Assembly: GCF_054482595.1 (NCBI RefSeq)
Contig: NZ_CM137008.1
Strand: one strand, 5' to 3'
DNA length: 64,000 nucleotides
In this document: positions 30,442 to 48,678 of the stretch, in pieces
Layout: each line of letters opens with the position of its first letter
Position numbering within the stretch: position 1 is the first letter of the stretch
The notes under the pieces: model-generated
The model's database searches: none
What the model was told of the DNA's origin: nothing
The model's input: only the letters and a program-made list of their open reading frames with translations
Position numbers and translations under genes: made by a program

Positions 30442-32431
30442 ACAACTGGTATTACATAATTTTCGGGTATTTAACGGTACTCACACGATTGATCTGGCTC
30501 CAAGAAAGCGACCACATGAAGTAAACCCTCGTCCGATTGTGCTGTTTGGCGGTTTAAATGGTGCAGGTAAAACGTCTATTCTGTCGGCTATCCGGCTGGC
30601 ATTGTATGGGCGGCTGGCATTTGGGCTCGCGACTCAGCAACAGGATTATATTGAGCATCTTAGTTCGTTGATTCACAAAGGTGCGTACTATATTGAGCAA
30701 CCGGAAGAGGCGGCTGTTGAACTGACCTTTACCTATAATAAGGGTGGGCAGGAATCAGAGTTTACTGTTACGCGAACTTGGAAAAAGGGCAAGAAAGATC
30801 GCCTTTCTTTACAAAAGGATGGCCAACCACTCAGTGAACTGGATTATGATCAGTGCCAGGGGTTTCTTAATGAATTAATTCCTCATGGTATTGCTGATTT
30901 GTTCTTTTTTGATGGCGAAAAAATTGCGGAACTGGCAGAAGATGAATCTGGCAATATTTTGCGCACCGCTGTACGCCGTTTATTGGGCCTGGATCTGATA
31001 TCCAAACTGCGTAATGACTTAATGATTTTCGTTAAGCGCCAACAATCCAGCCAGTTAGCGGAAACTCAGCAACAGCAGATTGAAGTGCTGGAAAAACAAA
31101 GTAGAGACTTAGCTTGTCAGACAGAAGCATTGCTGGAAAAAGCTGATTTTGCCAAATCTAGAATCGAGTTTCTGTCTAAAGACATTATTCGCTATGAAGG
31201 CTTGTTGAATGCGCAGGGCGGTGCATTTGCGCAGACAAAAGCGCAGGAGAAGCAGAAAGTTGAAACACTGCTAAAAGATAAGGAGCGCCTGGAAAAAGCA
31301 CTGCGTCAGGAATGTGATGGATCATTACCTTATGCACTAGCTCCCAATATTTTATCCGAGTTGCTGGAAAAAATTGCTGATGAAACGCAGATCAAACAAG
31401 CTCAAAGCTTTGAAAAAGAGTTAAGGCTATTTTTGGCCCAGCTCAGAAACGATATTGCATTACGCTCTCGTACTACCAGTAAAATTGCAGCCGAGGCGAT
31501 TACTGATAATCTGAACGAATATATGGCAACTAAGCCGAAGGGCGATTTGTTGTTTGATATTTCTGAACGTGAAGCCGGCATGCTCCAGCAATCAATAGAG
31601 CAGGACAGTAAAAAGGCATGGCAGCGCTTCGAGCTTTACCGTATTCAGTTAGCAGAAATTGAACAGCAACTAGAGCAAGCCGCTGCCAATATTGCCCGCG
31701 CTCCGGAAGATGAGCAGTTAATGGATCTTTTTGAAAAGCTGCGCGATCTTGATAAGCAGCGTGAAAATCAGCGGCAAAAATATCTTTCATTGCTGGAAGA
31801 CGCTAAACGGGTTAAGCAACAGCAACTGGATTGTGTCCGTCAGGTGCAAAAACTGCATGATGCGGCCCGCAGTCAGCATGGCTTTAGTAGCGCCTTCAAA
31901 AATGCGCAGGAAACAATTAATTTACTCGATCGGTATAGCGACGTATTAACTCAGGCGAGAGTAAAGACGCTATCTGCTAACTTTGAAGTTGCCTATCGCA
32001 AACTGGCTCGTAAAGAAGATATGCAACTGAGTGCTCATATTAACCCAGAGACATTTGACGTTGAGTTAATTGATGAGAAGGGATCTGTCATTAATCGTAA
32101 GTTACTATCTGCCGGTGAAAAGCAGATTTATGCCATTGCTATTCTTGAGGCGCTAGCAAAAACTTCTGGTCGTGATTTGCCGGTGATTATTGATACGCCA
32201 TTAGGACGTCTGGATTCACAACATCGGGATAAACTAATTAACCATTATTTCCCATTTGCCAGCCATCAAGTGGTGCTATTGTCTACCGATACGGAAGTGG
32301 ATGAACGTTATTTTGTTGACCAATTACGTGATGATATTTCTCATGCTTACGAGATAGTATTTAACACGCATACTAAATCATCAGCGTTGAAGCCCGGTTA
32401 TTTCTGGGAATTAACTAAGGAGGCTATCTGA
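30383..32431 (+). CDS. dndD: DndD, SMC/ABC-like ATPase
   Basis: 682 aa; Walker A GGLNGAGKTS, long coiled coil, C-terminal signature and Walker B (LSAGEKQ...VIIDTPLGRLD). True start may be GTG 30431 rather than ATG 30383. Confidence 0.85.
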   Translation: MSMPANPLYWSARKTNVLIKQLVLHNFRVFNGTHTIDLAPRKRPHEVNPRPIVLFGGLNGAGKTSILSAIRLALYGRLAFGLATQQQDYIEHLSSLIHKGAYYIEQPEEAAVELTFTYNKGGQESEFTVTRTWKKGKKDRLSLQKDGQPLSELDYDQCQGFLNELIPHGIADLFFFDGEKIAELAEDESGNILRTAVRRLLGLDLISKLRNDLMIFVKRQQSSQLAETQQQQIEVLEKQSRDLACQTEALLEKADFAKSRIEFLSKDIIRYEGLLNAQGGAFAQTKAQEKQKVETLLKDKERLEKALRQECDGSLPYALAPNILSELLEKIADETQIKQAQSFEKELRLFLAQLRNDIALRSRTTSKIAAEAITDNLNEYMATKPKGDLLFDISEREAGMLQQSIEQDSKKAWQRFELYRIQLAEIEQQLEQAAANIARAPEDEQLMDLFEKLRDLDKQRENQRQKYLSLLEDAKRVKQQQLDCVRQVQKLHDAARSQHGFSSAFKNAQETINLLDRYSDVLTQARVKTLSANFEVAYRKLARKEDMQLSAHINPETFDVELIDEKGSVINRKLLSAGEKQIYAIAILEALAKTSGRDLPVIIDTPLGRLDSQHRDKLINHYFPFASHQVVLLSTDTEVDERYFVDQLRDDISHAYEIVFNTHTKSSALKPGYFWELTKEAI

Positions 32432-34562: not shown

Positions 34563-37500
34563 TCAAAAAACAAGCTCCCAAAACGCTCTATCTCGCATCT
34601 TGCTAACCCGCTTATCCCCATCAACATACAGACTGAAATGTTTTTCAAGCTGCCGAATCTGCCCCATTAACGACTCCTGTTCGCCCTTATCATCCACGTT
34701 GAATACAGCCTTGATATCCGCATTTTTAATTTCGGACACACGATGAATAACCCAGGTTAGAATATATGAAGCGTAATTGTTCTCTCCAGTTTTGAAGTGG
34801 GTAATTTCCTGCGTTGACAGGATCGCTCCAACACCATATTCACGACCTTCCTTAAGGATCTTCCTCAGACTGGAAAAGTCCTGGCGCATAAAGTTATCTG
34901 CCTCATCCACCAGAATCATCTTGGTGAGCTGACGATAATCCCCCTGAATCACTGGCTTGCCGCGTTTTTGCATTTGTGCATAAAACAGATCCAGGGTTAG
35001 CGCAACCACCAGGTTTTGAATCTCTGATGAGTAGCCAGCCAATTCGATAACTGTGACACCATCCACCAGATCATACAGACTCGTCATTTTCTCTGGGTCT
35101 GTTTCAAATATCTGAAACCCAGCTAAGTTATAAAGCGCGGCGTACAATGAGTCTTCTTCTACTTTTTCCTGAGCCAGATATCGCTGCCACACATCTTCTA
35201 TGGTCGGTGCAACACGGTTCCAGGTTGAGCGATCATGAGGCACTATTCCTGCTAATTCATAGCACTCCATGATTAGCGTAACCAGTTTCATACGCTGTTT
35301 CACACCCAGGTTATAGGCTTTCCCCATTGTTTCAGAAAATGCGATTGCGGTATGTCTGGGTAACATGGGCATATCACCAAACAGTGACAAAGGGTTATAA
35401 GGTAGTAACGATAATTGATATTTCTTACCGCCAGTAGCCTTCAGAAAAGCCTCGTCCACATAGTCAGATTTATAATCAAAGATCAGTAAACCAATCGATT
35501 TTCCATCAACGTTACAGGATTGGTTACGCATTAATTGTGTCACCAGCGATTTGGTAAATTGCGTTTTCCCGGTCCCCATCGTACCGATGATGCCTGTGTT
35601 GGTATTCATAAACTTCGTGGTGTTGGTCGGTTCCCAGAATAACGGGGTTTGCCGTGTAGCGTCATGACCAAATAATACTTGTAAGGGTACAGTGCTGACC
35701 TCTGGTGTCGGCTTTGGAATATCAGGTCGTGTGTCTGGCGGTGTCGTTACCTGCACTCCCGATGCTGATGGAGATGGGTGCTCATCACTCTCTGGCTTCA
35801 GACGGTATTTATCTGGTACCCGGTAGCGTTCAGCCAATGGCAATTTACCTTCACGGGTAGTGATTAACGAGGATAGTAATGAATAAGGAATTTCGATCTG
35901 TAAGATATTCGCTGTCGTCTCTTTATAGGAGAGATCGAAGCAAGATCCGCTGTCTACATGTGCAACAACAAAGCCATTAGCATAGTCTTTTAACTCACCC
36001 AACTGATAGTCACCGGTCAACCACCATTCGCGGCGATCCAACAGGGGAGCCAGCTTATCACTGTCCAGCACACCGTACAGCTGAAGTTTCTCTACCTGCA
36101 TCAGCACCTGTCGAATAAAGAGCGCGCGATAAAGTTGCGATGCCAGTGTATGCGGCTCCAGAATATCCTGCTGTAAATAACGTTTAAGCTCAGCAGCCTG
36201 CTGGCCCGCATAGTTGTAATCTGGTCGAGCGCCGGTTTTGACTTCCAGCGGCAGTAAATAGAGACGGTTTTCTTTAAAACCAACAAAGAGCACATCATCA
36301 GAGATTGCGCCTTTACGGTACCCCTGTAGATTTCTTGATAAATCGCTTTCCTTCATCTTTAGCCCGACGTTACCAGATACGCGAATCATTTCGGCTACAG
36401 ATAGCGGTACCCAGCAGATATCAGACTCACTCAGCATGGACTGTACAAATTTATACGCGCCAATGATGCCATATTTCTCTTTGCGCTCTTTTTCACTGGA
36501 GCGCAACATCTTCAGCAACCACTCACCGTTAAAAGCATTAAATTCGGCAAGTAGATGCTGGCTATCAACGGCAGATTGCCCGGACTGGCTTTCGGTCTGG
36601 AGCAGGCGGAGGAATAGATCGACCTGCTTCGTTACCGTCACTGCATCGTAGCCTGCACAACTAGTGTACTGATCGGAATAGTGGATCAGCACAACATCTT
36701 TCTGGCTAGTAAAGAAGTCAAGAGTAACTTTAGGGTCAATAATGGTGGTCCAGAGTGCACTGTTGTAAGAATAATTGAGTAGCTGTTTAAAATTGCCGCT
36801 TACGGCCAATCCAATCCCTTGTCCGTGGTATTGACTGTTGCTCTGACGCGCTGGCTGCCACAGGCAGCCCACTAACCGGGCAAGTCGTAGAGCGCAGTAA
36901 GATTCAGTATCAACATTCCGCAGGCCAAACGCGGTAAAGTAAGCATCCCCCTGTGTTTCAGCTCCTTCTCCGGAAATCAGCCCATGACACAGTACACCGC
37001 TGGCAGCATCCTCAATGCGGATCTGGCGGCAATCCACCGGAGCTGTATTGGTGAAAAACGCCAAATGTGCATAGGCCAATTTGTCGCTTTCTGACGGCAG
37101 GACAAATTTGCTGAACGTTAACCGACTGCGTAACAGGTCAATCAGCATATCGGCCTCAGCTCGCCACGCACCGCGGTTCAGGTCAAGGTCGTTTTTAAGC
37201 TGTTCATAGCTGCCACTCTCGGCAAAGCGATCAAACATATTTGGCAGCAGGCGTTCATCGTAGCAATTTACATGCACCGAAATAGCATGCTCTTTTTCCT
37301 GCTTAAAATATTCCACTAACCCCAGAAACAGTTCTTTCGCTGTTCCCTGATTAATAGCATTAATAATCAATGCATTGTTTCCGGGACTCTGAAATAGCCG
37401 GGCGTAGGCTTCGGTAAATTCATTGAGCTTGTCTTTTACCAAACGTTTTACGTAATCGTGGCTCACCTGGCGCTGGGGAACGACATCGATCCAGAAGCGA

Positions 37501-39638
37501 TTTTCTTCCACCGGCTGCAACTGTGCGTATTCGTGTTCACTGTGGTAAACGAATGGCATCAAGCCGGACACCACCAGACGATCAAGCGTAATGGTCGGTA
37601 GTGTGGCAAATGACGCTGAGTCGTATTGTTCCTGCTCTGCGCAGATAGTTTGTACCAGTTGTAAATGGTAGGCCAACACTAGGGGATGCAACGGGGAGAG
37701 ACGTTCATGACTGTCGACATTACAAATACCCAGATGCAGCAGGCGCTTTTCCTGCGCTGTTAACGCTCTGCTCAACTCGATTTGTTGAAGCGCCTGTTCA
37801 AAGGTCGTCACTATATGGCTTACCAGCGCGCAGTATTCTGCTGACCACGATACTAGGCTAGGTAAAGTACCGCAGCGCTGGTAGTAGAGGAATAATTGGT
37901 CGTAGGCGTTATAGAGATCGGGGTGGATGGCAACGAGTTCATCCAGCGCAAACGCGCTATCGTCATCTCCTGTCCCCAAAAGACGTTGATCAACTAATGA
38001 GGCTTCCAGCGCCAGTAACTGCTGGCGAACACCGACAACCTTGTGTTCGGTATTATCAAGAATGATACGACCCTTCAATCGGTTCCAGGACGCATTCCCG
38101 TCTTCTTTGAACAGTTTATTGAAACGACTCTGGTCAAAAAGTAGCGGTAAGGTTAACCCTTCTTCGGCTCCCGGCCCTTCGATATTGAATGCCAGACAAG
38201 AATCACCTGAAACAAGCTTAAATTGGATCAGATCGCTTTGATTTGCCAGTGTTTCAAAATTCACCAATGCATAATGCTGGCAGTCAATATCACCATTTTC
38301 TTCATCCAGTATACAGACTTGGCTACCCGACTCAGCGATTCGTAGTTCGTTGTCTTCGCGTTGGAGTGTGATTTGTGGTTTACCTGGCTCGATACGGAAA
38401 CAATGCTGAATATCGTCTAGCCAGAATTGTCCTTGTCTGACCAGTAACAGGCGGAACTTGTACTCTTCGGCTGAATTATTGCGATTAGTCAGTTCGAGGC
38501 TAAAGAAGCAGGGATTCCCATCGAAAGGAACCGACGCCATAATACGGGAGCTTTTACCCCCTGCACGACTAATTCGCCAGAAACGCTCTTTTTTTAACTG
38601 ACGATGATGCGCAATTTTTATCTGGTTATCCTGAAGATCGTTGCCCTGAAAGCAAAACTCCAGCTCAGTTTGCGATTGTTCGGGTGGTACCTGTACCAGT
38701 AGGCTGATATCGCGCTTGCCTGCTTTACTTGCGCTTTTCGCCCGTTGCCAAATCACGCCATTTTCGACCGTGATATCATCCAGTACCAGTTTTTGTTCGC
38801 GGTTCTGTTCTTTTTCGTTTAGATAAACAGCGAAATCAAGCTCGCGCCAGTCGTCTTTATCATTGAAATGTTCCTGAATAAATTTGGCGCTGAATTCAGT
38901 TAATACGTTCTCCAGTTGCCCACTGTAGCGTTCAACGCTGTCCTCGATTTGACGAAATAACTTCCTGTTTTCATTCAGTCGGGTATGGAGCTGTTTCTGG
39001 CTAAAATTCAGTAGTTCATCATCTTTAAACAGCGATAGCTCGGAGAAATCCAGATTGCCGTCATCCAGCAGGCGATACAACGACGAGAAGCCAAATACGG
39101 TCGCACCTTCATCCAGTACCGTTGTTCGTTGATCCTTTAATAAGCAACGCGACAACTCTGAACGGTTGTTGTCCGTCGTGATCAACTTTTCCAATTCATG
39201 ACTGAAGGTTTCGGGGTGCCAGATAGCTCCCGGTGCCGCGACGTCTTTTGTGCTGTTAATCAGGGTGTCCAGCATGCTGTTATGAATAATCAGCAGTGCA
39301 GTTTTGGCAAACACCCCGCTGCGGCCAGCAACTTCATCGCGTAAATGGGATATGTAGTTTTCCGTGAATGCTGGCGCTGCGGCTCCGTGCAGCACCGGAA
39401 TAAGCTGAATACCATTACAGGAGAGACAGGCAAGGCGCTGCTCTGGCGCAATTTCCAGATGATTGTCACCTGCCAGGTCAACAAAAGCCTGCCAGAGTTG
39501 TAGAGCATTGTCAGGGTCAGGAGATTTAAACTGGTAACGCTCACCAGGTTGAATAATGCCACTAACCCATTCAATAAAGGTTTCCGCCAGATAGGTTTCA
39601 TACTGTTTTACGGACATACACGGCGTCTCCACTGTCAC
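34563..39638 (-). CDS. dptH: DptH/DndH-like large restriction component with C-terminal HerA/FtsK-type ATPase
   Basis: 1691 aa; C-terminal Walker A GTMGTGKT and Walker B ILVDEADN; third gene of a co-oriented set of three whose sizes match DptF/G/H as I recall them. Alternative start ATG 39617. Confidence 0.65.
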   Translation of the reverse strand: MTVETPCMSVKQYETYLAETFIEWVSGIIQPGERYQFKSPDPDNALQLWQAFVDLAGDNHLEIAPEQRLACLSCNGIQLIPVLHGAAAPAFTENYISHLRDEVAGRSGVFAKTALLIIHNSMLDTLINSTKDVAAPGAIWHPETFSHELEKLITTDNNRSELSRCLLKDQRTTVLDEGATVFGFSSLYRLLDDGNLDFSELSLFKDDELLNFSQKQLHTRLNENRKLFRQIEDSVERYSGQLENVLTEFSAKFIQEHFNDKDDWRELDFAVYLNEKEQNREQKLVLDDITVENGVIWQRAKSASKAGKRDISLLVQVPPEQSQTELEFCFQGNDLQDNQIKIAHHRQLKKERFWRISRAGGKSSRIMASVPFDGNPCFFSLELTNRNNSAEEYKFRLLLVRQGQFWLDDIQHCFRIEPGKPQITLQREDNELRIAESGSQVCILDEENGDIDCQHYALVNFETLANQSDLIQFKLVSGDSCLAFNIEGPGAEEGLTLPLLFDQSRFNKLFKEDGNASWNRLKGRIILDNTEHKVVGVRQQLLALEASLVDQRLLGTGDDDSAFALDELVAIHPDLYNAYDQLFLYYQRCGTLPSLVSWSAEYCALVSHIVTTFEQALQQIELSRALTAQEKRLLHLGICNVDSHERLSPLHPLVLAYHLQLVQTICAEQEQYDSASFATLPTITLDRLVVSGLMPFVYHSEHEYAQLQPVEENRFWIDVVPQRQVSHDYVKRLVKDKLNEFTEAYARLFQSPGNNALIINAINQGTAKELFLGLVEYFKQEKEHAISVHVNCYDERLLPNMFDRFAESGSYEQLKNDLDLNRGAWRAEADMLIDLLRSRLTFSKFVLPSESDKLAYAHLAFFTNTAPVDCRQIRIEDAASGVLCHGLISGEGAETQGDAYFTAFGLRNVDTESYCALRLARLVGCLWQPARQSNSQYHGQGIGLAVSGNFKQLLNYSYNSALWTTIIDPKVTLDFFTSQKDVVLIHYSDQYTSCAGYDAVTVTKQVDLFLRLLQTESQSGQSAVDSQHLLAEFNAFNGEWLLKMLRSSEKERKEKYGIIGAYKFVQSMLSESDICWVPLSVAEMIRVSGNVGLKMKESDLSRNLQGYRKGAISDDVLFVGFKENRLYLLPLEVKTGARPDYNYAGQQAAELKRYLQQDILEPHTLASQLYRALFIRQVLMQVEKLQLYGVLDSDKLAPLLDRREWWLTGDYQLGELKDYANGFVVAHVDSGSCFDLSYKETTANILQIEIPYSLLSSLITTREGKLPLAERYRVPDKYRLKPESDEHPSPSASGVQVTTPPDTRPDIPKPTPEVSTVPLQVLFGHDATRQTPLFWEPTNTTKFMNTNTGIIGTMGTGKTQFTKSLVTQLMRNQSCNVDGKSIGLLIFDYKSDYVDEAFLKATGGKKYQLSLLPYNPLSLFGDMPMLPRHTAIAFSETMGKAYNLGVKQRMKLVTLIMECYELAGIVPHDRSTWNRVAPTIEDVWQRYLAQEKVEEDSLYAALYNLAGFQIFETDPEKMTSLYDLVDGVTVIELAGYSSEIQNLVVALTLDLFYAQMQKRGKPVIQGDYRQLTKMILVDEADNFMRQDFSSLRKILKEGREYGVGAILSTQEITHFKTGENNYASYILTWVIHRVSEIKNADIKAVFNVDDKGEQESLMGQIRQLEKHFSLYVDGDKRVSKMRDRAFWELVF

Positions 39639-40923
39639 TCATTCGCTCCACATTTCCCATACGTTCATAAAACGCTACCAGCGTTTGTGCCGACTGGTTA
39701 TCCAGATAAAATCCGCGCTGTTCAAAGCCGCGCAGCAACTCATGCAGGCGTAGTTTGTCATTTTTACCCACAGTGAGATTGGTCAGCAGCAGCAGACGAT
39801 CCTGATTCAGTACCAGTACTTTTCCCGCCCGACCACGTACCTGAATGAAATCGGTGCAGATCTGGGTTTCAAGCTCGTTGATGTATTTCCGGTTAACTGT
39901 CGCACGATCAGATTTCTTATCCTGAAACTGTTCAACAGCAACGGTTAATAATTGTTTAAAAGCTTCTTCCAGCGTAACGGCTTGCGTATACTTCGATGCC
40001 GAAAGCTCGCGTTTTTCGATAAACTCCTGCAAATAATTATTGAGATCTTGCAGTAATTGAGATGAGTTATCAGAAAAATTTAAGCAATCCTGATAGACCT
40101 GCCAGAGTGGACGCTTCTTATCTCCTTTTATTTGTAGAACTTCCAGCGCGGAGAGTATTGGGAAAAGTTTTTCACTTTGACGAGCGAACCACTTATAACC
40201 AAAGCGTTTTATTTGATCCCGTTCAGAACTGGCTTTTTCAGTGTCGAGAATAAAGAAAAGCGACTTACTTTGTGGCTCGCCGTCCTGCCAGTTGTCCAGA
40301 TTGAGCGCTAGCTGGGCACACCAGCTAAAGGCATATAAACGCAGAGTATTAGTCAGTTCTTGTAACAAATATTGAGGGTGTTCTGCCAAAAACGCCAGAT
40401 CAGACTGAAAACAAGTCACCAGATAGGGAAGGTAGGGTTGTTCTTCAGAGAATGGGCCTTTTCCCAATAACTTTATTTTTTCATTGAGCTTATTTAGCAT
40501 TTGCTGCTCAATGAAGTTCAGCTTATCCTGGATAGGATATTCCAAGCTGAAATCTCCCATTAGATTAGCAAACAGAGTGCCAAGGCGTTTATCGGCCATT
40601 GAAGCGCCACTTATTTTTTCGCCATCAAACTGAGCATGAAATAGTAAAAAAAGCGGAGATACACGAAAGATATCTTCACTGGAAAAATACATCCGTTCCA
40701 GTACAGTCCAGAATGCTGGTTCATCAAGCAATTCTTGCAAATGAGCCTTGCAATCATCGCGAAATTGACTGGGAGTATAGGCATCAATTTTACGCTTCAG
40801 GGCGTAACTAAGCACCAATCCGGTGACAAATTGCCAGTTAATATCATTGTTTTTGTTACGTATCGGCAGATAACTATCCAGTTGATTATTACCTACTTTT
40901 AACGTCGTTGCGATAGGGTACAT
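39598..40923 (-). CDS. dptG: DptG/DndG-like protein
   Basis: 441 aa, no recognisable motif; assigned from position between the DptF-like and DptH-like genes. Confidence 0.55.
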   Translation of the reverse strand: MYPIATTLKVGNNQLDSYLPIRNKNNDINWQFVTGLVLSYALKRKIDAYTPSQFRDDCKAHLQELLDEPAFWTVLERMYFSSEDIFRVSPLFLLFHAQFDGEKISGASMADKRLGTLFANLMGDFSLEYPIQDKLNFIEQQMLNKLNEKIKLLGKGPFSEEQPYLPYLVTCFQSDLAFLAEHPQYLLQELTNTLRLYAFSWCAQLALNLDNWQDGEPQSKSLFFILDTEKASSERDQIKRFGYKWFARQSEKLFPILSALEVLQIKGDKKRPLWQVYQDCLNFSDNSSQLLQDLNNYLQEFIEKRELSASKYTQAVTLEEAFKQLLTVAVEQFQDKKSDRATVNRKYINELETQICTDFIQVRGRAGKVLVLNQDRLLLLTNLTVGKNDKLRLHELLRGFEQRGFYLDNQSAQTLVAFYERMGNVERMSDSGDAVYVRKTV

Positions 40924-40927
40924 TCCA

Positions 40928-42577
40928 CTAACCCTCCATACCGCTAATGGTGATCATGTCGTCGTCCGCTTTAGCGCGATAAACTCGCCGCCCACCAGCA
41001 TAAAACTTGATTTCGCTGCTGGATTTGGCCTGTTCAGTAATCAAATCAACGATTTCGTCCAGTAGAACAATGGCATTTTTATCGTATTTATTGGGGCGAT
41101 AGCCATTGTTTAATTTGTTCAAAAGTTCAAATAAATTAAGTCCGATACGAACTGGTAACAGAGAGTTTTGCCCAACTTTTAAATGCACGTCGAAGCCAGT
41201 AGGGTGGGCCGTATTTTTATTGCGGATGGCCTCCCAGTCAGGTTTCAATTCGACTGGCGCGGTTATTTTTACCCCACCATATTCACCTAAAAAGAACTCT
41301 TCTTTTTGCATACTCAATTCCGGCGCTTTGCGGTTTGCATAGCGCTGAATACCAGCAATAAGTTCGGATGTATAAAACCGGTTCAGTGCTTTTTTCTGCT
41401 CTGAGTCAGCGATGTAATTTTTGTGCAGATGCCAGATTTCTGAATAATGCTCAAATAAAGATTCATTGAAGAATACGGAAAATTTCTGATGATAATTATT
41501 CCCCAGAGATTCATCCTGCAGCAACCAGAAGAGCCGAATTAATGAAGCCGCATCACCCGGATTAACGCACTGGCGATCAAATCTAATGTGTAATGGCGCG
41601 AGTGCAGCTAAAAAATCATCCAGTTCAGGGTCAACCAGGCCCAATTCGTAGCGCAAAATAAACTGATCGATTTCATAGGTGTGCAGCCTAGCAGGATCAA
41701 AATCAGAAACTTTTTTAATCAGGTCGTTTTCTGCCCCAGTGAAAAGATTATCAAATAAATACCCCGGCCCCATAAGCAAATGATGCAGAAAATCCAATAG
41801 AGTTCGGGTTGTCACAAACTGATCTTTAATCAGGCGGGCCTTAAAGAGCTGAGTGATGAGAACATCCTGAACACCCGGCAGACAAAGTAATTTATAGTTA
41901 GCAACTTCTTTCAGCTCAGGGTTAACGGTCTCATCATGTCGAAAAATAAACTGAAACAAATTACTATCATCATTACGGGTTAAATTATCCAGTAATGTTT
42001 TAATAAACGATGAATACTGTTTTTTTTCATTAAACTGGAATTTAGGGTAATGCTCAAAGTCAAAAAAAGAACAATGCCCACTGCGGTATGGGCGGCTTTC
42101 TTCCTGATCTGCTGACAAGAAAGAATCGATCGCAGTGCGGATCGCCAGATGGCATTCAGCACCTTCTCTGGCAAAATTGGCGAGCATCCCGGTATTGATG
42201 CCTATAAGCAAAGGAGATGAGTATTGGTGATGATTGCTAAATAAATCATTTAAAGCATCAATAGCTGATTGCCGGGGAGCAAAGCTGTGTGTTGCATCCA
42301 GATGAAAACTAAAGCGCTGCTGATAACGAGGGTTTGACTTACAACGGGTCAAAATTTCGGACTTTCCATCACCACTACTGCCACACAAAAAGATGATTTC
42401 ACCGGGCTTAGCAACATCCAGATAACGTTGCAGCTCAGTTTCAATTTCTTGTTTAACAAAGAGTTGTTCTTTTAACTGATCGAACTCATCCTTTTGACGA
42501 TGCGTTACCGTGGTTACGGAAAACGAAGATGACTTCGCAAGTACACCCAACGCTTTACGTAATGTGATTGCGCTCAT
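40928..42577 (-). CDS. dptF: DptF/DndF-like P-loop ATPase
   Basis: 549 aa; Walker A LCGSSGDGKSE near the N-terminus; first gene of the three-gene operon. Confidence 0.6.
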   Translation of the reverse strand: MSAITLRKALGVLAKSSSFSVTTVTHRQKDEFDQLKEQLFVKQEIETELQRYLDVAKPGEIIFLCGSSGDGKSEILTRCKSNPRYQQRFSFHLDATHSFAPRQSAIDALNDLFSNHHQYSSPLLIGINTGMLANFAREGAECHLAIRTAIDSFLSADQEESRPYRSGHCSFFDFEHYPKFQFNEKKQYSSFIKTLLDNLTRNDDSNLFQFIFRHDETVNPELKEVANYKLLCLPGVQDVLITQLFKARLIKDQFVTTRTLLDFLHHLLMGPGYLFDNLFTGAENDLIKKVSDFDPARLHTYEIDQFILRYELGLVDPELDDFLAALAPLHIRFDRQCVNPGDAASLIRLFWLLQDESLGNNYHQKFSVFFNESLFEHYSEIWHLHKNYIADSEQKKALNRFYTSELIAGIQRYANRKAPELSMQKEEFFLGEYGGVKITAPVELKPDWEAIRNKNTAHPTGFDVHLKVGQNSLLPVRIGLNLFELLNKLNNGYRPNKYDKNAIVLLDEIVDLITEQAKSSSEIKFYAGGRRVYRAKADDDMITISGMEG

Positions 42578-42814
42578 AACTTCATGTTCTCAAAAGTAGG
42601 ATTATACCTATTCTATAAAAGCTATCCGCTGATATCTATAGGCACTTTGAGACATTTATTACGGGCAATTTTAAAATTGTATCTTTTCCATCCGTACACA
42701 AAACACATCCAGAGATGGCGGGGAAAATCCATCTATCAACCAGTTCCACTTTGGAAATTGCTTGATTAGTAGTATCTTAATCAAACACATACGCTAAATA
42801 TTACCCCCGATTGA

Positions 42815-42966
42815 TTTTCGCATAGTCAAACAGCGTAATCGATCTCTCCCTATTCGCATCCAGAAAATCAGCCCACCATACTGCAAATCAGCTCGCGCTC
42901 ATCCAGATGTTCTGCCTTATGGATATACGCCCCCTTACCGATGTGACTCATCTGACGTTCAGCCGC
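42815..42966 (-). pseudogene. Degenerate 3' fragment of a second P4-type integrase gene
   Basis: About 110-150 bp of nucleotide similarity to the 3' region of the intact integrase (45990..46100), e.g. GCATCCAGAAAATC.GCCCACCAT and CTCATCTGACGTTCA; frame broken. Confidence 0.55.
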
Positions 42967-43072
42967 TTTATCTCATGTTGTTCTGGTCTCAATACTTCCA
43001 TGCCGTTGCAATTACCTCTTAAACCAGCCCTTACCATTTTTATGGGTACGATAAGAAAACTTTATCGGGCAC

Positions 43073-43098
43073 GATCGATTTTATCGATCGATTCGATC
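43073..43098. promoter_or_regulatory. Cluster of three GATC sites upstream of the outer-membrane protein gene
   Basis: GATC at 43073, 43086 and 43095 within overlapping ATCGAT/TCGATCGA palindromes, about 90-120 bp upstream of the start at 43190. Confidence 0.35.
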
Positions 43099-43189
43099 GA
43101 AAACATTCCTTTTACCTTATCTTTTTCATGGTCTTAGAATGAGCAACCCCATTTATCGTTCGGGGAAAGTGATAGCGGAGATGATTGAA

Positions 43190-43930
43190 ATGAATAAGGT
43201 TATTGCGGTTTCAGCGCTTGCCATGGCAGGCATGTTTTCGACCCAGGCTCTGGCTGATGAAAGCAAAACAGGCTTTTATGTGACCGGTAAAGCAGGTGCT
43301 TCTGTTATGTCACTTGCAGACCAGCGTTTCCTGTCGGGGGATGGAGAGGAAACATCAAAATATAAAGGCGGTGATGGCCATGATACGGTATTCAGTGGCG
43401 GTATCGCGGCCGGTTATGATTTTTACCCGCAGTTCAGTATTCCGGTTCGTACGGAACTGGAGTTTTACGCTCGTGGAAAAGCTGATTCGAAGTATAACGT
43501 AGATAAAGACAGCTGGTCAGGCGGTTACTGGCGTGATGACCTGAAGAATGAGGTGTCAGTCAACACACTGATGCTGAATGCGTACTATGACTTCCGGAAT
43601 GACAGTGCATTCACACCATGGGTATCTGCAGGGATTGGCTACGCCAGAATTCACCAGAAAACAACCGGTATCAGTACCTGGGATTATGGGTACGGAAGCA
43701 GTGGTCGCGAATCGTTGTCACGTTCAGGCTCTGCTGACAACTTCGCATGGAGCCTTGGCGCGGGTGTCCGCTATGACGTAACCCCGGATATCGCTCTGGA
43801 CCTCAGCTATCGCTATCTTGATGCAGGTGATAGCAGTGTGAGTTACAAGGACGAGTGGGGCGATAAATATAAGTCAGAAGTTGATGTTAAAAGTCATGAC
43901 ATCCTGCTTGGTGTGACTTATAACTTCTGA
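43190..43930 (+). CDS. Outer-membrane beta-barrel protein (OmpA-like/opacity family)
   Basis: Signal peptide MNKVIAVSALAMAGMFSTQALA, alternating amphipathic strands, C-terminal ...LLGVTYNF. ORF track start 43139; 43190 preferred. Confidence 0.7.
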   Translation: MNKVIAVSALAMAGMFSTQALADESKTGFYVTGKAGASVMSLADQRFLSGDGEETSKYKGGDGHDTVFSGGIAAGYDFYPQFSIPVRTELEFYARGKADSKYNVDKDSWSGGYWRDDLKNEVSVNTLMLNAYYDFRNDSAFTPWVSAGIGYARIHQKTTGISTWDYGYGSSGRESLSRSGSADNFAWSLGAGVRYDVTPDIALDLSYRYLDAGDSSVSYKDEWGDKYKSEVDVKSHDILLGVTYNF

Positions 43931-44103
43931 CGACACTGCTCCTGAACGATAATACGTATATTTAGCAATTAAGATAATTGCGTATCTTCTGCAATTAAAC
44001 AGAAATACCCTGCAGTCTATTACTGCAGGGTTATCTGTTTCACAGATAATTTCTGATTTTTATTATCCTGTTCTCTTCATCATAATGTTGTCGATATACT
44101 CCG

Positions 44104-45603
44104 ATGAATATCAGAAAACTGTTTTGTCCGGGAAACACACCCCGGATTTTATTGTTTTTATTCTTTTTTGTTGTTTCTGCAATAACCACAATTGCATGCG
44201 GATACACTGAGAAGAATGCCACAGGAAATGTGCTGCTTCTGTTTCTCCTTCTTCTCCTTGCACACAGAAATACCCTCACATCCATTACAGCGCTGTTATT
44301 TCTGTTCTGTTGTGCACTGTATGCGCCTGCGGGTATGACGTACGGTAAAATCAACAACAGTTTTATTGTCGCGTTGCTGCAGACCACGGCTGATGAGGCT
44401 GCAGAGTTTACCGGGATGATTCCTGTTTATCATTTTCTGGTCAGTGCCGCGATTCTGGTATTCATGGTGATTTTCTGGCGGACACACCACCGCGGTCACC
44501 GTAACTGGCTGGCACTGCTGCTATTCGTATTATGCTCTGTAAACAGCTGGCCGTTGCGGATGGTTAAAGGAACTGTTGTGGGGACAACTGACACATTGCG
44601 TGAAATGCAGCGTTATAAACAACTGAGTCAGCACGGGGCTGATAACTGGAAAATCCTGCCGGGTGTGCCGTTGTATGACACGATTGTTATCGTTACTGGT
44701 GAGAGTGTGCGCAGGGATTATATGTCGGTATATGGCTATCCCGTGCCAACCACGCCGTGGCTGAATACTGCTCCCGGTTTATTTATTGACGGCTATACAT
44801 CGACAGCAGCCAGTACCGTACCTTCCCTGAGCCGGACACTGATTTATGACTATGAGCAGAACCCTGACTCCGGCAACAACGTGGTGGCGCTGGCAGCAAA
44901 AGCAGGATACAGCACATGGTGGATATCCAATCAGGGAAAACTGGGAGAGCATGACACACGCATCTCTGTTATTGCTTCTGATGCGGAGCATACCGTTTTC
45001 CTCAAGAAAGGCAGCTTCGCTTCCCGTAAAACGGATGACATGTTGTTGTTACAGGAAACAGAACGTGCGCTGGCGGATAAATCCTCGCCGAAGGTGATTT
45101 TCCTGCACATGATTGGCTCTCATCCGAATCCGTGTGACCGACTTAACTCCTGGCCGAATTATTACCTGGAGCAGTATCCCCGAAAGATTGCCTGTTACCT
45201 CGCCAGCATCAGTAAACTGGATAACTTTCTCGGTCAGCTTGATGGTATCCTTCGCCGGCATTCCCGTCACTTTGCAATGCTTTACTTTTCTGACCATGGG
45301 CTGTCGGTCAGCGACAGTGCTAATCCTGTTCATCATGATGGTCATGTGCAGGGGGGCTACAGCGTTCCCCTGATTATTACCGCCAGTGACATCACGTCTC
45401 ATCAGTCCGTCAGCAGGAAAATCAGTGCCCGTAATTTCGCAGGCATTTTTCAGTGGCTGACCGGTATTCGTACCGAAAATATAACGCCATTCAATCCGCT
45501 GACAGACGAAGATAATGAACCCGTTATGGTTTTTAACGGAGAGAAAAATGTGCCGGCAGACAGTCTGAAACCGCAGCCACTTATTCTTCCGGACCACAGG
45601 TAA
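44104..45603 (+). CDS. Phosphoethanolamine transferase (EptA/OpgE-like; sulfatase domain with N-terminal TM segments)
   Basis: 499 aa; N-terminal hydrophobic helices then a sulfatase-like catalytic region; corresponds in position to the yjgX-type gene of leuX islands. Confidence 0.7.
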   Translation: MNIRKLFCPGNTPRILLFLFFFVVSAITTIACGYTEKNATGNVLLLFLLLLLAHRNTLTSITALLFLFCCALYAPAGMTYGKINNSFIVALLQTTADEAAEFTGMIPVYHFLVSAAILVFMVIFWRTHHRGHRNWLALLLFVLCSVNSWPLRMVKGTVVGTTDTLREMQRYKQLSQHGADNWKILPGVPLYDTIVIVTGESVRRDYMSVYGYPVPTTPWLNTAPGLFIDGYTSTAASTVPSLSRTLIYDYEQNPDSGNNVVALAAKAGYSTWWISNQGKLGEHDTRISVIASDAEHTVFLKKGSFASRKTDDMLLLQETERALADKSSPKVIFLHMIGSHPNPCDRLNSWPNYYLEQYPRKIACYLASISKLDNFLGQLDGILRRHSRHFAMLYFSDHGLSVSDSANPVHHDGHVQGGYSVPLIITASDITSHQSVSRKISARNFAGIFQWLTGIRTENITPFNPLTDEDNEPVMVFNGEKNVPADSLKPQPLILPDHR

Positions 45604-45926: not shown

Positions 45927-47192
45927 TTACTGTTTTAATGGATTATTAATCTTTGCATATTCAAATGGACTGATAAATTTTTCTCTGTTTGCATCCAGAA
46001 AATCGGCCCACCATTGTAGCATCAAGCGGCGTTCTTCCAGATGCTCTGCTTTATGGATATACGCGGCCCTCACTGAATTTCGCTCCATGTGGCTCATCTG
46101 ACGTTCAACAGCATCACGAGACCACAAACCTGATTCGACCAATGAACTACAGGCCATTGTTCGAAAGCCATGACCACAAACCTCTACTTTTGTATCATAC
46201 CCCATGACCCGTAACGCACTATTTACCGTATTCTCACTCATGGGTTTGTGCGAATCGTGATCACCAATAAATATCAAGTCATGGGCCCCACAAAACTGTT
46301 TTATCTGCTTTAAAATTGCAAGAGCTTGCGTTGAAAGAGGCACTAGATGCGTTGTACGCATTTTTGAGCCTCTATGGGAATGTTTCACTCCAGGAATAGG
46401 CTCCCGCTCCGGTGGGATAGTCCATATAGACGCTTCGAAATCGATCTCTGACCAACGAGCAAAACGCAGCTCACTGGACCGAATAAAGATCAGCAAAGAG
46501 AGTTCTGTCGCCCATCGGGTTAGCGGCCTACCAGTATAGCTATCTATTTTTGTAAGCAACTCAGGGATGCGCTTTAATTCAAGCGCGGGACGATGTTGTC
46601 GATTACAGGAAGCAACCGCCCCAGCCATCTCTTGTGCCGGGTTATAATCAATTAACCCACTTTGCACTGCATAGCGCATGATGGCTGTAGTGCGCTGCTG
46701 AAGACGAGCGGCCACTTCAAGACGTCCAGACATTTCTACGGCCTTAATGGGTGCTAATAAATCTCGAGTTTTTAACTCAGCGATATTACGTTCACCAAGC
46801 GCTGCAAAAAGATTATCTTCCAGACTTTTTAGCACACGATGGGCGTGATCTTCAGACCACTTTTTATTGGTGCCATGCCACTCAATCGCGACTTCTTTAA
46901 AGGTTCGTGCTTTACTCTGTTCAACCTTATCATTTTTCTTTTTGTCTCCCGGATCGACGCCATTCGCAAGCAGCTTACGCGCCTCGTCACGACGTACTCT
47001 GGCATCCGCTAGTGTGATTTCAGGATAAACCCCAAGTGCCAGCATTTTTTGCTTTCCCTCATAACGGTACTGCAAACGCCAGTACTTAGAACCATTTGGA
47101 TGGACAAGCAGATGCATACCGCCACCATCAGTCAGCTTATATTGCTTATCCGTTGGCTTGGCTGCTCTGACTTTGATATCTGTTAATGCCAT
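45927..47192 (-). CDS. intB: P4-type tyrosine integrase next to leuX
   Basis: 421 aa; N-terminal AP2-like DNA-binding region and C-terminal catalytic region with conserved R...HGFR...Y; immediately 3' of tRNA-Leu. Confidence 0.9.
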   Translation of the reverse strand: MALTDIKVRAAKPTDKQYKLTDGGGMHLLVHPNGSKYWRLQYRYEGKQKMLALGVYPEITLADARVRRDEARKLLANGVDPGDKKKNDKVEQSKARTFKEVAIEWHGTNKKWSEDHAHRVLKSLEDNLFAALGERNIAELKTRDLLAPIKAVEMSGRLEVAARLQQRTTAIMRYAVQSGLIDYNPAQEMAGAVASCNRQHRPALELKRIPELLTKIDSYTGRPLTRWATELSLLIFIRSSELRFARWSEIDFEASIWTIPPEREPIPGVKHSHRGSKMRTTHLVPLSTQALAILKQIKQFCGAHDLIFIGDHDSHKPMSENTVNSALRVMGYDTKVEVCGHGFRTMACSSLVESGLWSRDAVERQMSHMERNSVRAAYIHKAEHLEERRLMLQWWADFLDANREKFISPFEYAKINNPLKQ

Positions 47193-47378: not shown

Positions 47379-47463
47379 TGGTGCCGAAGGCCGGACTCGA
47401 ACCGGCACGTATTTCTACGGTTGATTTTGAATCAACTGCGTCTACCGATTTCGCCACTTCGGC
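47379..47463 (-). tRNA. leuX: tRNA-Leu (anticodon CAA)
   Basis: Reverse complement reads GCCGAAGTGGCGAAATCGGTAGACGCAGTTGATTCAAAATCAACCGTAGAAATACGTGCCGGTTCGAGTCCGGCCTTCGGCACCA; CAA anticodon loop, long variable arm, encoded CCA. Confidence 0.95.
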
Positions 47464-47658: not shown

Positions 47659-48678
47659 ATGTCGATGATAAAAAGCTATGCCGCAAAAGAAGCAGGCGGC
47701 GAATTGGAAGTTTATGAGTACGATCCCGGTGAACTGAAGCCATAAGATGTTGAAGTGCAGGTGGATTACTGCGGGATCTGCCATTCCGATCTGTCGATGA
47801 TCGATAACGAATGGGGATTTTCACAATATCCGCTGGTTGCCGGGCATGAGGTGATTGGGCGCGTGGTGGCACTCGGGAGCGCCGCGCAGGATAAAGGTTT
47901 GCAGGTCGGTCAGCGTGTCGGGATTGGCTGGACGGCGCGTAGCTGTGGTCACTGCGACGCCTGTATTAGCGGTAATCAGATCAACTGCGAGCAAGGTGCG
48001 GTGCCGACGATTATGAATCGCGGTGGCTTTGCCGAGAAGTTACGTGCGGACTGGCAATGGGTGATTCCACTGCCAGAAAATATTGATATCGAGTCCGCCG
48101 GGCCGCTGTTGTGCGGCGGTATCACGGTCTTTAAACCACTGTTGATGCACCATATCACTGCTACCAGCCGCGTTGGGGTAATTGGTATTGGCGGGCTGGG
48201 GCATATCGCTATAAAACTTCTGCACGCAATGGGATGCGAGGTGACGGCCTTTAGTTCTAATCCGGCGAAAGAGCAGGAAGTACTGGCGATGGGTGCCGAT
48301 AAAGTGGTGAATAGCCGCGATCCGCAGGCACTGAAAGCCCTGTCGGGGCAGTTTGATCTCATTATCAATACTGTGAACGTCAGCCTCGACTGGCAGCCTT
48401 ATTTTGAGGCGCTGACCTATGGCGGTAATTTCCATACAGTCGGTGCGGTTCTCACGCCGTTGCCGGTTCCGGCCTTTACGCTGATTGCGGGCGATCGCAG
48501 TGTCTCTGGCTCTGCTACCGGTACACCTTATGAGTTGCGTAAGCTGATGCGCTTTGCCGCCCGCAGCAAGGTTGCGCCGACTACCGAACTGTTCCCGATG
48601 TCGAAAATTAACGACGCCATCCAGCATGTGCGCGACGGTAAGGCGCGTTACCGCGTGGTTCTGAAAGCTGACTTCTGA
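47659..48678 (+). pseudogene. ahr: NADPH-dependent aldehyde reductase Ahr (YjgB) with premature in-frame TAA at codon 29
   Basis: ATG 47659 encodes [28 protein letters not shown] then TAA (47743..47745); same frame continues through the zinc-ADH body (ORF 47755..48678 from GTG). Confidence 0.75.

Follow-up and report, generated by a model that had tools for sequence, protein, structure and literature searches.

A conserved GATC block upstream of the adhesin gene hra1 of Escherichia coli as a candidate Dam-sensitive LysR-type operator

The GATC block and the promoter of hra1

Here we present an analysis of the region upstream of hra1, an outer-membrane protein (OMP) gene located in a 64,000-nucleotide stretch of Escherichia coli DNA (NCBI RefSeq assembly GCF_054482595.1, contig NZ_CM137008.1; the whole stretch is called the window below), which is 100% identical to strain W2-5 across the region compared. 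The hra1 module lies at the tRNA-proximal end of a leuX island, and a compact block of three GATC sites lies between the gene and the sequences of the island upstream of it. This block is conserved in many E. coli genomes and closely matches, at the level of single bases, a known methylation-sensitive site of Salmonella, and we tentatively regard it as an operator at which a LysR-type regulator and the Dam methylase compete. Judged by its sequence, the OMP is a member of the Hra1/Hek/Tia adhesin family (Hra1/Hek/Tia/Hra2/Hes), with an amino acid identity of 99.2% to the homologue of enteroaggregative E. coli (EAEC) strain 042, 91% to the hek locus of UTI89, and 66-70% to genes named tia by the Prokaryotic Genome Annotation Pipeline. 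We take the homologous gene of strain 042 to be hra1, a name which its annotation does not carry. On the whole, the family consists of adhesins, invasins and autoagglutinins of EAEC, of neonatal-meningitis and uropathogenic E. coli (NMEC and UPEC), of enterotoxigenic E. coli (ETEC), and of Shiga toxin-producing E. coli (STEC) negative for LEE, the enterocyte effacement locus (PMC5539235).

The three sites are found at 43073-43076 (GATC-1), 43086-43089 (GATC-2) and 43095-43098 (GATC-3), both by reading the sequence and by a regular-expression count, and lie 92-117 bp upstream of the hra1 ATG at 43190. Around them ATCGAT is present at 43074, 43083 and 43087 and TCGATCGA at 43084 and 43093, with the palindromes overlapping each other; repeat search adds a nested dyad CGATCGAT/ATCGATCG with 3 nt between its arms, and a 13-bp direct repeat CGATCGATTTTAT/CGATCGATTCGAT in the same block. 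The largest dyad is the imperfect one of 29 bp listed in Table 1, which sets GATC-2 and GATC-3 symmetrically, 9 bp apart, and corresponds to the part needed for binding of the LysR-type regulator HdfR at the Salmonella std operon. In addition, an imperfect palindrome GATAAGAAAACTTTATC is located at 43050-43066, with an OxyR-like half-site score of 6/10 at 43051. Between 42500 and 44500 there is only one other GATC, at 42841. An earlier sequence-only reading of this DNA, made by a model, had placed the GATCs at 43073, 43086 and 43095, within ATCGAT/TCGATCGA palindromes about 100 bp before the OMP start, and this is confirmed in full by the reading and the count. The same reading took the clustering itself as the hallmark of methylation-dependent phase variation, which is not borne out. 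The window has 207 GATCs where 248 are expected, a slight deficit; when sites are placed at random, 38% of trials give some triple no wider than 22 bp, and a comparable triple, serving as a chance control, is present inside the alcohol dehydrogenase coding sequence at 47775-47799. Clustering alone is not beyond chance; the conservation and the exact architecture of the block are.

Downstream of the block a sigma-70 promoter is predicted (Table 1), and this assignment is made because its hexamers are conserved and positioned directly downstream of the GATCs; every cassette in the alignment retains the two, in the forms TTTA(C/T)C and TA(G/A)AAT. Relative to the predicted transcription start, near 43147, the block would extend from about -74 to -49 and abut the -35 on its upstream side, and its ATC-N9-GAT dyads would be centred near -66 and -55, which is the usual activating position for LysR-type regulators. 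A GGAG stands 8-12 nt 5' of the hra1 ATG. An Rfam search of 42580-44110 gives no match.

Table 1. Features of the hra1 module and of the neighbouring part of the island (positions in the window)
Feature	Position	Strand	Remarks
dndB, dndC, dndD	27725-32431	+	DNA phosphorothioation system; equivalog-level NCBIfam matches
dptH, dptG, dptF	34563-42577	-	phosphorothioation-dependent restriction genes; equivalog-level NCBIfam matches
Integrase pseudogene fragment	~42801-42966	-	from annotation; upstream of the cassette
Conserved upstream part of the cassette	43033-43070	+	from the alignment of cassettes
Core operator ACGATCGATTTTATCGATCGATTCGATC	43071-43098	+	candidate methylation-sensitive LysR-type site; holds GATC-1 to GATC-3
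LysR-type transcriptional regulator (LTTR) box GATCGATTTTATCGATC	43073-43089	+	ATC-N9-GAT, GATC at either end
Imperfect 29-bp dyad ATTTTATCGATCGA-T-TCGATCGAAAACAT	43078-43106	+	centre 43092; 14-nt arms, 86% complementary
Predicted sigma-70 promoter	43111-43140	+	-35 TTTACC, 18-bp spacer, -10 TAGAAT
hra1	43190-43930	+	Hra1/Hek/Tia family outer-membrane adhesin, 246 aa; start from the W2-5 annotation
Terminator-like hairpin ACCCTGCAG-loop-CTGCAGGGT (also as CCCTGCAG-loop-CTGCAGGG) with T-rich tail	44007-44040	+	hairpin 44007-44031
Promoter-like TTCACA-16-TATTAT	44039-44066	+	sigma-70-like, 10/12
Phosphoethanolamine transferase	44104-45603	+	CptA/EptA superfamily; annotation and family profiles
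P4-type integrase	45927-47192	-	after the transferase
tRNA-Leu(CAA)	47379-47463		tRNA gene beside the island

We then present an overall view of the conservation of the region. Of 5426 complete E. coli genomes, 1685 (about 31%) carry a homologue of the 281 bp around the site, with identity from 100% down to about 71%, and the 43-bp motif block alone is detected in 1598 genomes, in every case in intergenic sequence. Thirteen further loci across this identity range were fetched and aligned, and column statistics were computed on 13 distinct versions of the cassette, whose OMPs range from 99% down to 65% in amino acid identity. In all of them homology extends from about 43033 to the start codon, about 160 bp, and the sequences farther upstream are unrelated; they come from different islands, some of which have the integrase fragment and some not. 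The integrase fragment is no part of the switch, since the cassettes of loci L009 and L012-L015, which are without it, keep the GATC block. The best-conserved part of the cassette reads TGATCG(A/G)TTTT(A/G)(T/C)CGATCGAT...TCGATCG. Within the 13 cassettes, 11 of the 12 columns formed by the GATCs show a single base throughout, compared with 63 of the 145 others (Fisher p=0.0012, Mann-Whitney p=0.0008), which on this alignment indicates purifying selection on the GATC columns. Conservation reaches past the GATC tetramers and includes GATCG, the TTTT run and GATCGATT.

Comparison with known Dam-dependent systems

The regulatory regions of K-12 agn43, P22 gtr, Mu mom and Salmonella std were compared with the block on sequence, and the closest likeness is found at std. 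The upstream activating sequence (UAS) of std holds three GATCs in 25 bp, numbered -242, -229 and -220; HdfR binds it only when it is unmethylated and protects GATC-2 and GATC-3 from Dam, these two sites being required for binding and GATC-1 dispensable, and the switch yields StdON and StdOFF lineages (PMC6735912). We reached the std UAS sequence via Idi, at 16491-16518 of locus L142, with its GATCs at 16493, 16506 and 16515; the route via YqeF gave no Salmonella cluster among the top matches, the large unnamed clusters being of Enterobacter and Klebsiella. Aligned with each other, the std UAS ACGATCataatcATCGATCGtaTCGATC and window positions 43071-43098 (ACGATCgattttATCGATCGatTCGATC) are identical at 20 of 28 bases. 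In both, the GATCs are spaced by 13 and then 9 bp with the same orientation toward the gene, both have all 20 bases of the common pattern ACGATC-N6-ATCGATCG-N2-TCGATC, and in both the product controlled is a horizontally acquired adhesin. The core around GATC-2 and GATC-3 is identical at 14 of 16 bases (ATCGATCGatTCGATC in the window, ATCGATCGtaTCGATC at std). When either source is shuffled, the 20-base pattern has zero matches, even if up to 3 mismatches are tolerated. In 215 kb of enterobacterial and phage DNA, the 13/9 triple is confined to the Hra cassettes and std, and its orientation is the same in every case. A general local alignment of the cassette with the std intergenic region is marginal, with 14 of 500 shuffles reaching its score, since the ATCGAT units, being repetitive, can be paired in more than one register; it is the comparison kept in register which is informative. 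As for the presumed regulator, hdfR (K-12 query, at least 95% identity) is present in 5425 of the 5426 complete E. coli genomes, as a core gene outside the window.

The two systems are not the same in all respects. In L142 the std GATCs (16493-16518) lie 218-240 bp before the called stdA start codon at 16732, while those of hra1 abut the -35; it follows from this distance that the published numbering of -220 to -242 (PMC6735912) corresponds approximately to the distance from the ATG, not from a far-upstream start. The spacer between GATC-1 and GATC-2 is ATAATC at std and GATTTT at hra1, and the product is a fimbria in one case and a monomeric beta-barrel adhesin in the other. Just upstream of the std UAS, L142 also carries an Ail/Lom-family OMP gene and a yfdX gene.

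The OxyR-dependent systems are the next to be considered. Methylatable OxyR half-sites share the form GATCG-N-T-NNN-A-N-CGATC, as in agn43 (GATCGTTTATATCGATC) and in OxyR(A) and OxyR(C) of P22 gtr (GATCGGTAACAACGATC and GATCGCTTGTATCGATC), and GATCGATTTTATCGATC at 43073-43089 is an exact match to GATCGNTNNNANCGATC, with 0.16 expected; Mu mom is one mismatch from it. Positions 43074-43088 score 8/10 against the OxyR half-site consensus ATAGxTxxxAxCTAT (PMC2909390) with GATC at both ends, and functional half-sites in published work score 7-10/10, yet half-sites scoring 8/10 occur 28 times in the window. OxyR binds two half-sites, which are 32 bp apart in agn43, gtr and opvAB, and no good partner is found here at tetramer spacing, which is 32 bp for the reduced and 22 bp for the oxidised form: the positions at -32, +32 and +22 score 5/10 and that at -23 scores 6/10. 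Like hra1, agn43 encodes a self-associating outer-membrane adhesin and has three GATCs in about 35 bp, a pair of them 13 bp apart flanking an OxyR half-site in identical architecture, and the 13-mer ATTTTATCGATCG is common to both regions. In agn43, however, the spacing is 19 and then 13, a second half-site ATAGAATAAAACGAT stands 32 bp upstream, for which hra1 has no counterpart, and the site lies downstream of the transcription start where OxyR represses, whereas the hra1 site is upstream of the predicted -35. The GATCs of Mu mom are spaced by 18 and 13 bp, unlike the 13 and 9 of hra1. The gtr and opvAB promoters resemble hra1 in their GATCG-N7-CGATC half-sites and in having the regulator site immediately upstream of the -35, an activating position, but possess three or four half-sites, spaced by 32 bp (or 41 bp) and occupied alternatively, where hra1 has one compact 28-bp block of overlapping dyads.

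The pap system, a switch of Lrp, Dam and PapI with two GATC boxes 102 bp apart inside Lrp sites, shares with the predicted hra1 switch the Dam-dependent control of an adhesin. The ACGATC of hra1 with its T-rich stretch may loosely resemble the pap GATC boxes. A pap-type reading is rejected, as there is no second GATC box at 102 bp, the nearest other GATC (42841) being 232 bp upstream; no papI/papB-like open reading frame (ORF) is found among the ORFs neighbouring hra1. A Fur/Dam reading of sci1 type was likewise rejected, GATAAGAAAACTTTATCGG agreeing by eye at only 9/19 positions with the Fur box consensus. The Ag43 and pap type of switch proposed in the sequence-only reading is thus not upheld, with the 102-bp spacing of pap absent, the OxyR site half present, and the best match being the HdfR-bound UAS of std; what did gain from the GATC conservation and the std match is the more general idea of Dam-dependent phase variation, for which the block is now a stronger candidate than when clustering was offered as its hallmark.

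A candidate operator and the rival explanations

These comparisons lead to claims of different strength. That the GATC block is a functional operator is very probable, and Dam methylation probably affects it, with somewhat less assurance. HdfR is the best candidate for its regulator because of the std match, and OxyR comes second because of its half-site match; the assignment to HdfR as such is tentative, falling short of an even chance. The combined reading is that hra1 is made bistable by a LysR-type operator sensitive to Dam, with HdfR as a likelier regulator than OxyR; it is the one we favour, as a possibility standing a little below even odds.

According to this favoured reading, an operator spanning about 28 bp and placed just upstream of the -35 of hra1 would carry a LysR-type T-N11-A / ATC-N9-GAT dyad whose contacts would include the adenines of the GATCs. 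After replication, Dam methylase and the LysR-type regulator, most likely HdfR, would compete for the site. Full methylation would exclude the regulator and leave the weak promoter OFF or basal; if the regulator came first, it would activate transcription from about -55 to -66 and shield the GATCs from Dam. The unmethylated ON state would be inherited, and Hra1-ON and Hra1-OFF lineages would be present in the population. Regulator binding, its sensitivity to methylation, activation and bistability are predictions of this scheme, as is the phase variation of hra1 itself. The product, a self-associating adhesin, belongs to a class of genes which is under known Dam switches, and this speaks for the reading.

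Several points weigh against it. The promoter matches the consensus at 9 of 12 positions, no commoner than in shuffles, and the transcription start is a predicted position. The invariant TTTT run between GATC-1 and GATC-2 of the hra1 cassette is missing from std, and GATC-1 is invariant in the cassette, in contrast to the dispensable GATC-1 of std. HdfR depends at std on two co-activators, StdE and StdF, which the operon itself encodes and which close a loop of positive feedback (PMC6735912); the hra1 module, with dptF, the integrase fragment, the phosphoethanolamine transferase and the integrase as neighbours, contains no regulator gene, and in some other islands a helix-turn-helix (HTH) or WYL gene is found downstream of the cassette and OMP. 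Between hdfR and maoP, the place to expect autoregulation, there is no GATC and no ATCGAT motif, and the region is uninformative as a second HdfR site. Mutants of hra1, hek and tia show phenotypes in bulk culture, which would mean that the gene is not almost always OFF as std is. Finally, our literature search found no methylation, binding or single-cell expression data for the hra1 promoter. It gave no report of regulation, phase variation or methylation for any promoter of the Hra family, and no printed copy of the hra1 motif or of the std UAS turned up in the papers searched. A paper on EAEC 042 describes unexplained phase-variable autoaggregation in a strain without Hra1-mediated aggregation, which has no bearing on hra1 itself.

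Among the rival explanations, a methylation-indifferent operator has to be weighed with care, although we consider it rather unlikely. The palindromes would bind a LysR-type or other regulator, possibly encoded in the island, the GATCs would owe their conservation solely to being inside the palindromes and would always be methylated, and expression would be unimodal and controlled by a signal. Conservation past the GATCs into GATCG, the TTTT run and GATCGATT is what any protein-binding site would show, many palindromic operators contain GATC by chance, and both the module without a positive-feedback regulator and the bulk-culture phenotypes, which suggest substantial expression, agree with it. 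Yet in the cases studied by experiment of which we read reports, agn43, gtr, opvAB and std, LysR-type sites with GATCs so placed all had their binding altered by methylation. In addition, loci L012 and L013 (1502-1545 and 1455-1498 of the respective locus) have a 9-bp insertion ATGATCACA which adds a fourth GATC in the same 9-bp phase, giving a spacing of 13, 9 and 9, and this suggests selection on GATC itself. An OxyR/Dam switch of the agn43, gtr and opvAB type, in which OxyR would bind the unmethylated block and Dam methylation would abrogate the binding, is unlikely. The exact match to GATCGNTNNNANCGATC, an architecture common to the proven methylation-sensitive half-sites of agn43 and gtr, the 8/10 score, the 13-mer held in common with agn43, and the activation of gtr and opvAB from a half-site beside the -35 all speak for it. 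It is set back by the poor partner half-sites, by the frequency of 8/10 half-sites in the window, and by the 13/9 triple, which fits std and not agn43 or mom; moreover, at position A10 of the consensus (43083) some cassettes have A and others G.

Two other explanations were considered. If the GATCs served the timing of hemimethylation, SeqA would bind them after passage of the replication fork and cause a transient, cell-cycle-coupled repression with no heritable switch. GATCs about two helical turns apart favour cooperative binding of SeqA, the 22 bp from GATC-1 to GATC-3 is about this distance, and both std and opvAB have SeqA as an ancillary repressor; but at known loci it is accessory and not primary, and helical phase alone suffices for it, so that the conservation of the flanking dyad and the match to an HdfR site would be left unexplained. 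We regard this explanation as quite improbable. A chance cluster without function agrees with the frequency of such triples in random placements and with the one in the alcohol dehydrogenase gene, and is nevertheless hardly credible: the sites are conserved across cassettes whose OMPs differ as widely as given above, the match to the std UAS pattern is exact, and the conservation analysis effectively refutes it.

Cassette variants, neighbouring genes and biological meaning

Besides L012 and L013, other natural alleles of the operator are observed. Locus L011 (1541-1580) has a 9-bp insertion without GATC (ATCATCGCA) and a truncated OMP gene, while in L008 GATC-3 is lost (TTGATAAAA; ~1595-1625) and the -35 altered. 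An H-NS-family paralogue gene is located directly upstream of the cassette and divergent from it in two loci, intact in L012 (836-1309) and a pseudogene in L008 (1083-1454), and may have a bearing on whether the adhesin is silenced or relieved of silencing. The hek loci (L015, from UTI89, at 640-1430 of the locus, and also L014 and L010) have the cassette and promoter followed by a degenerate OMP start (ATG changed to CTT) and an ORF of 122 aa whose C-terminal half is hydrophobic; the ribosome-binding site and ATG recur about 690 bp downstream, where hek starts, and with this layout the cassette would therefore drive the 122-aa ORF first. This ORF has no family match and a narrow distribution, and was rejected as the original cargo of the cassette, its homologues in Klebsiella aerogenes and in Enterobacterales 8AC being without the cassette. 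A scan of genome contigs with the pattern GATCGNNNNNNNCGATCGNNNCGATCG gave, among the matches listed, chance matches in high-GC genomes and none in Enterobacteriaceae.

The phosphoethanolamine transferase downstream of hra1 is probably a separate transcription unit, judging from the sequence between the two genes. The terminator-like hairpin there (-24 kcal/mol for its surroundings of 61 nt) is kept, with small changes, in all seven loci which pair an hra1-type OMP with the transferase, and it is followed by the promoter-like site of Table 1. Elsewhere, in islands of other strains, what comes after this cassette and OMP is unrelated to the transferase: leoC or an HTH regulator gene. Co-regulation of the transferase by read-through is possible though not the default expectation, and the extension of the switch to this gene, which had also been suggested, is doubtful in view of the hairpin, the promoter-like site and the unrelated genes elsewhere. 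The transferase itself scores far below the curated family cut-offs for CptA, EptA, EptB and MCR.

As for the rest of the island, a complete-looking phosphorothioation system (dndBCD and dptHGF) adjoins the hra1 module on its upstream side. Two autotransporter ORFs are also present, one of 1165 aa at 7595-11092 (- strand), AIDA-I/ECSE_1600-like, and one of 895 aa at 24187-26874 (- strand), which has a beta-barrel domain as its sole match; no GATC triple is found upstream of either, nor an agn43-type regulatory region with them. The alcohol dehydrogenase gene beside tRNA-Leu (47755-48678) is a frameshifted partial pseudogene in the W2-5 annotation (L001 11058-11293).

It is of interest to consider what the block means for the Hra family. 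In the broadest reading, a portable promoter cassette of about 160 bp with a std-like HdfR/Dam operator would travel with Hra1/Hek/Tia/Hes genes through many pathogenicity islands and make these adhesins phase-variable, which we consider rather doubtful as a whole. Were it true, about one third of E. coli, including EAEC, UPEC/NMEC, ETEC and LEE-negative STEC, would have a phase-variable adhesin, and natural 9-bp indels which add or remove a GATC would tune its switching rate. No HdfR/Dam switch is known so far apart from Salmonella std; this would be the first other case, in E. coli and with a much simpler architecture, and the first which is promoter-proximal and without operon-encoded co-activators. 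If hra1 is bistable, the bulk phenotypes and mutant comparisons of Hra adhesins would have to be interpreted afresh, the fraction of ON cells would decide how useful these adhesins are as antigens or diagnostic markers, and the autoaggregation switching in EAEC 042 derivatives would gain a mechanistic precedent, though the strain described is without Hra1-mediated aggregation. Should the prediction fail, there is still, upstream of a widespread gene associated with virulence, an uncharacterised operator under strong conservation. If it holds, the cassette would offer a small system, provided by nature, in which to follow the making of heritable states by Dam and a LysR-type regulator, with the operator alleles of L012, L013, L011 and L008 ready-made for the comparison of switching behaviour.

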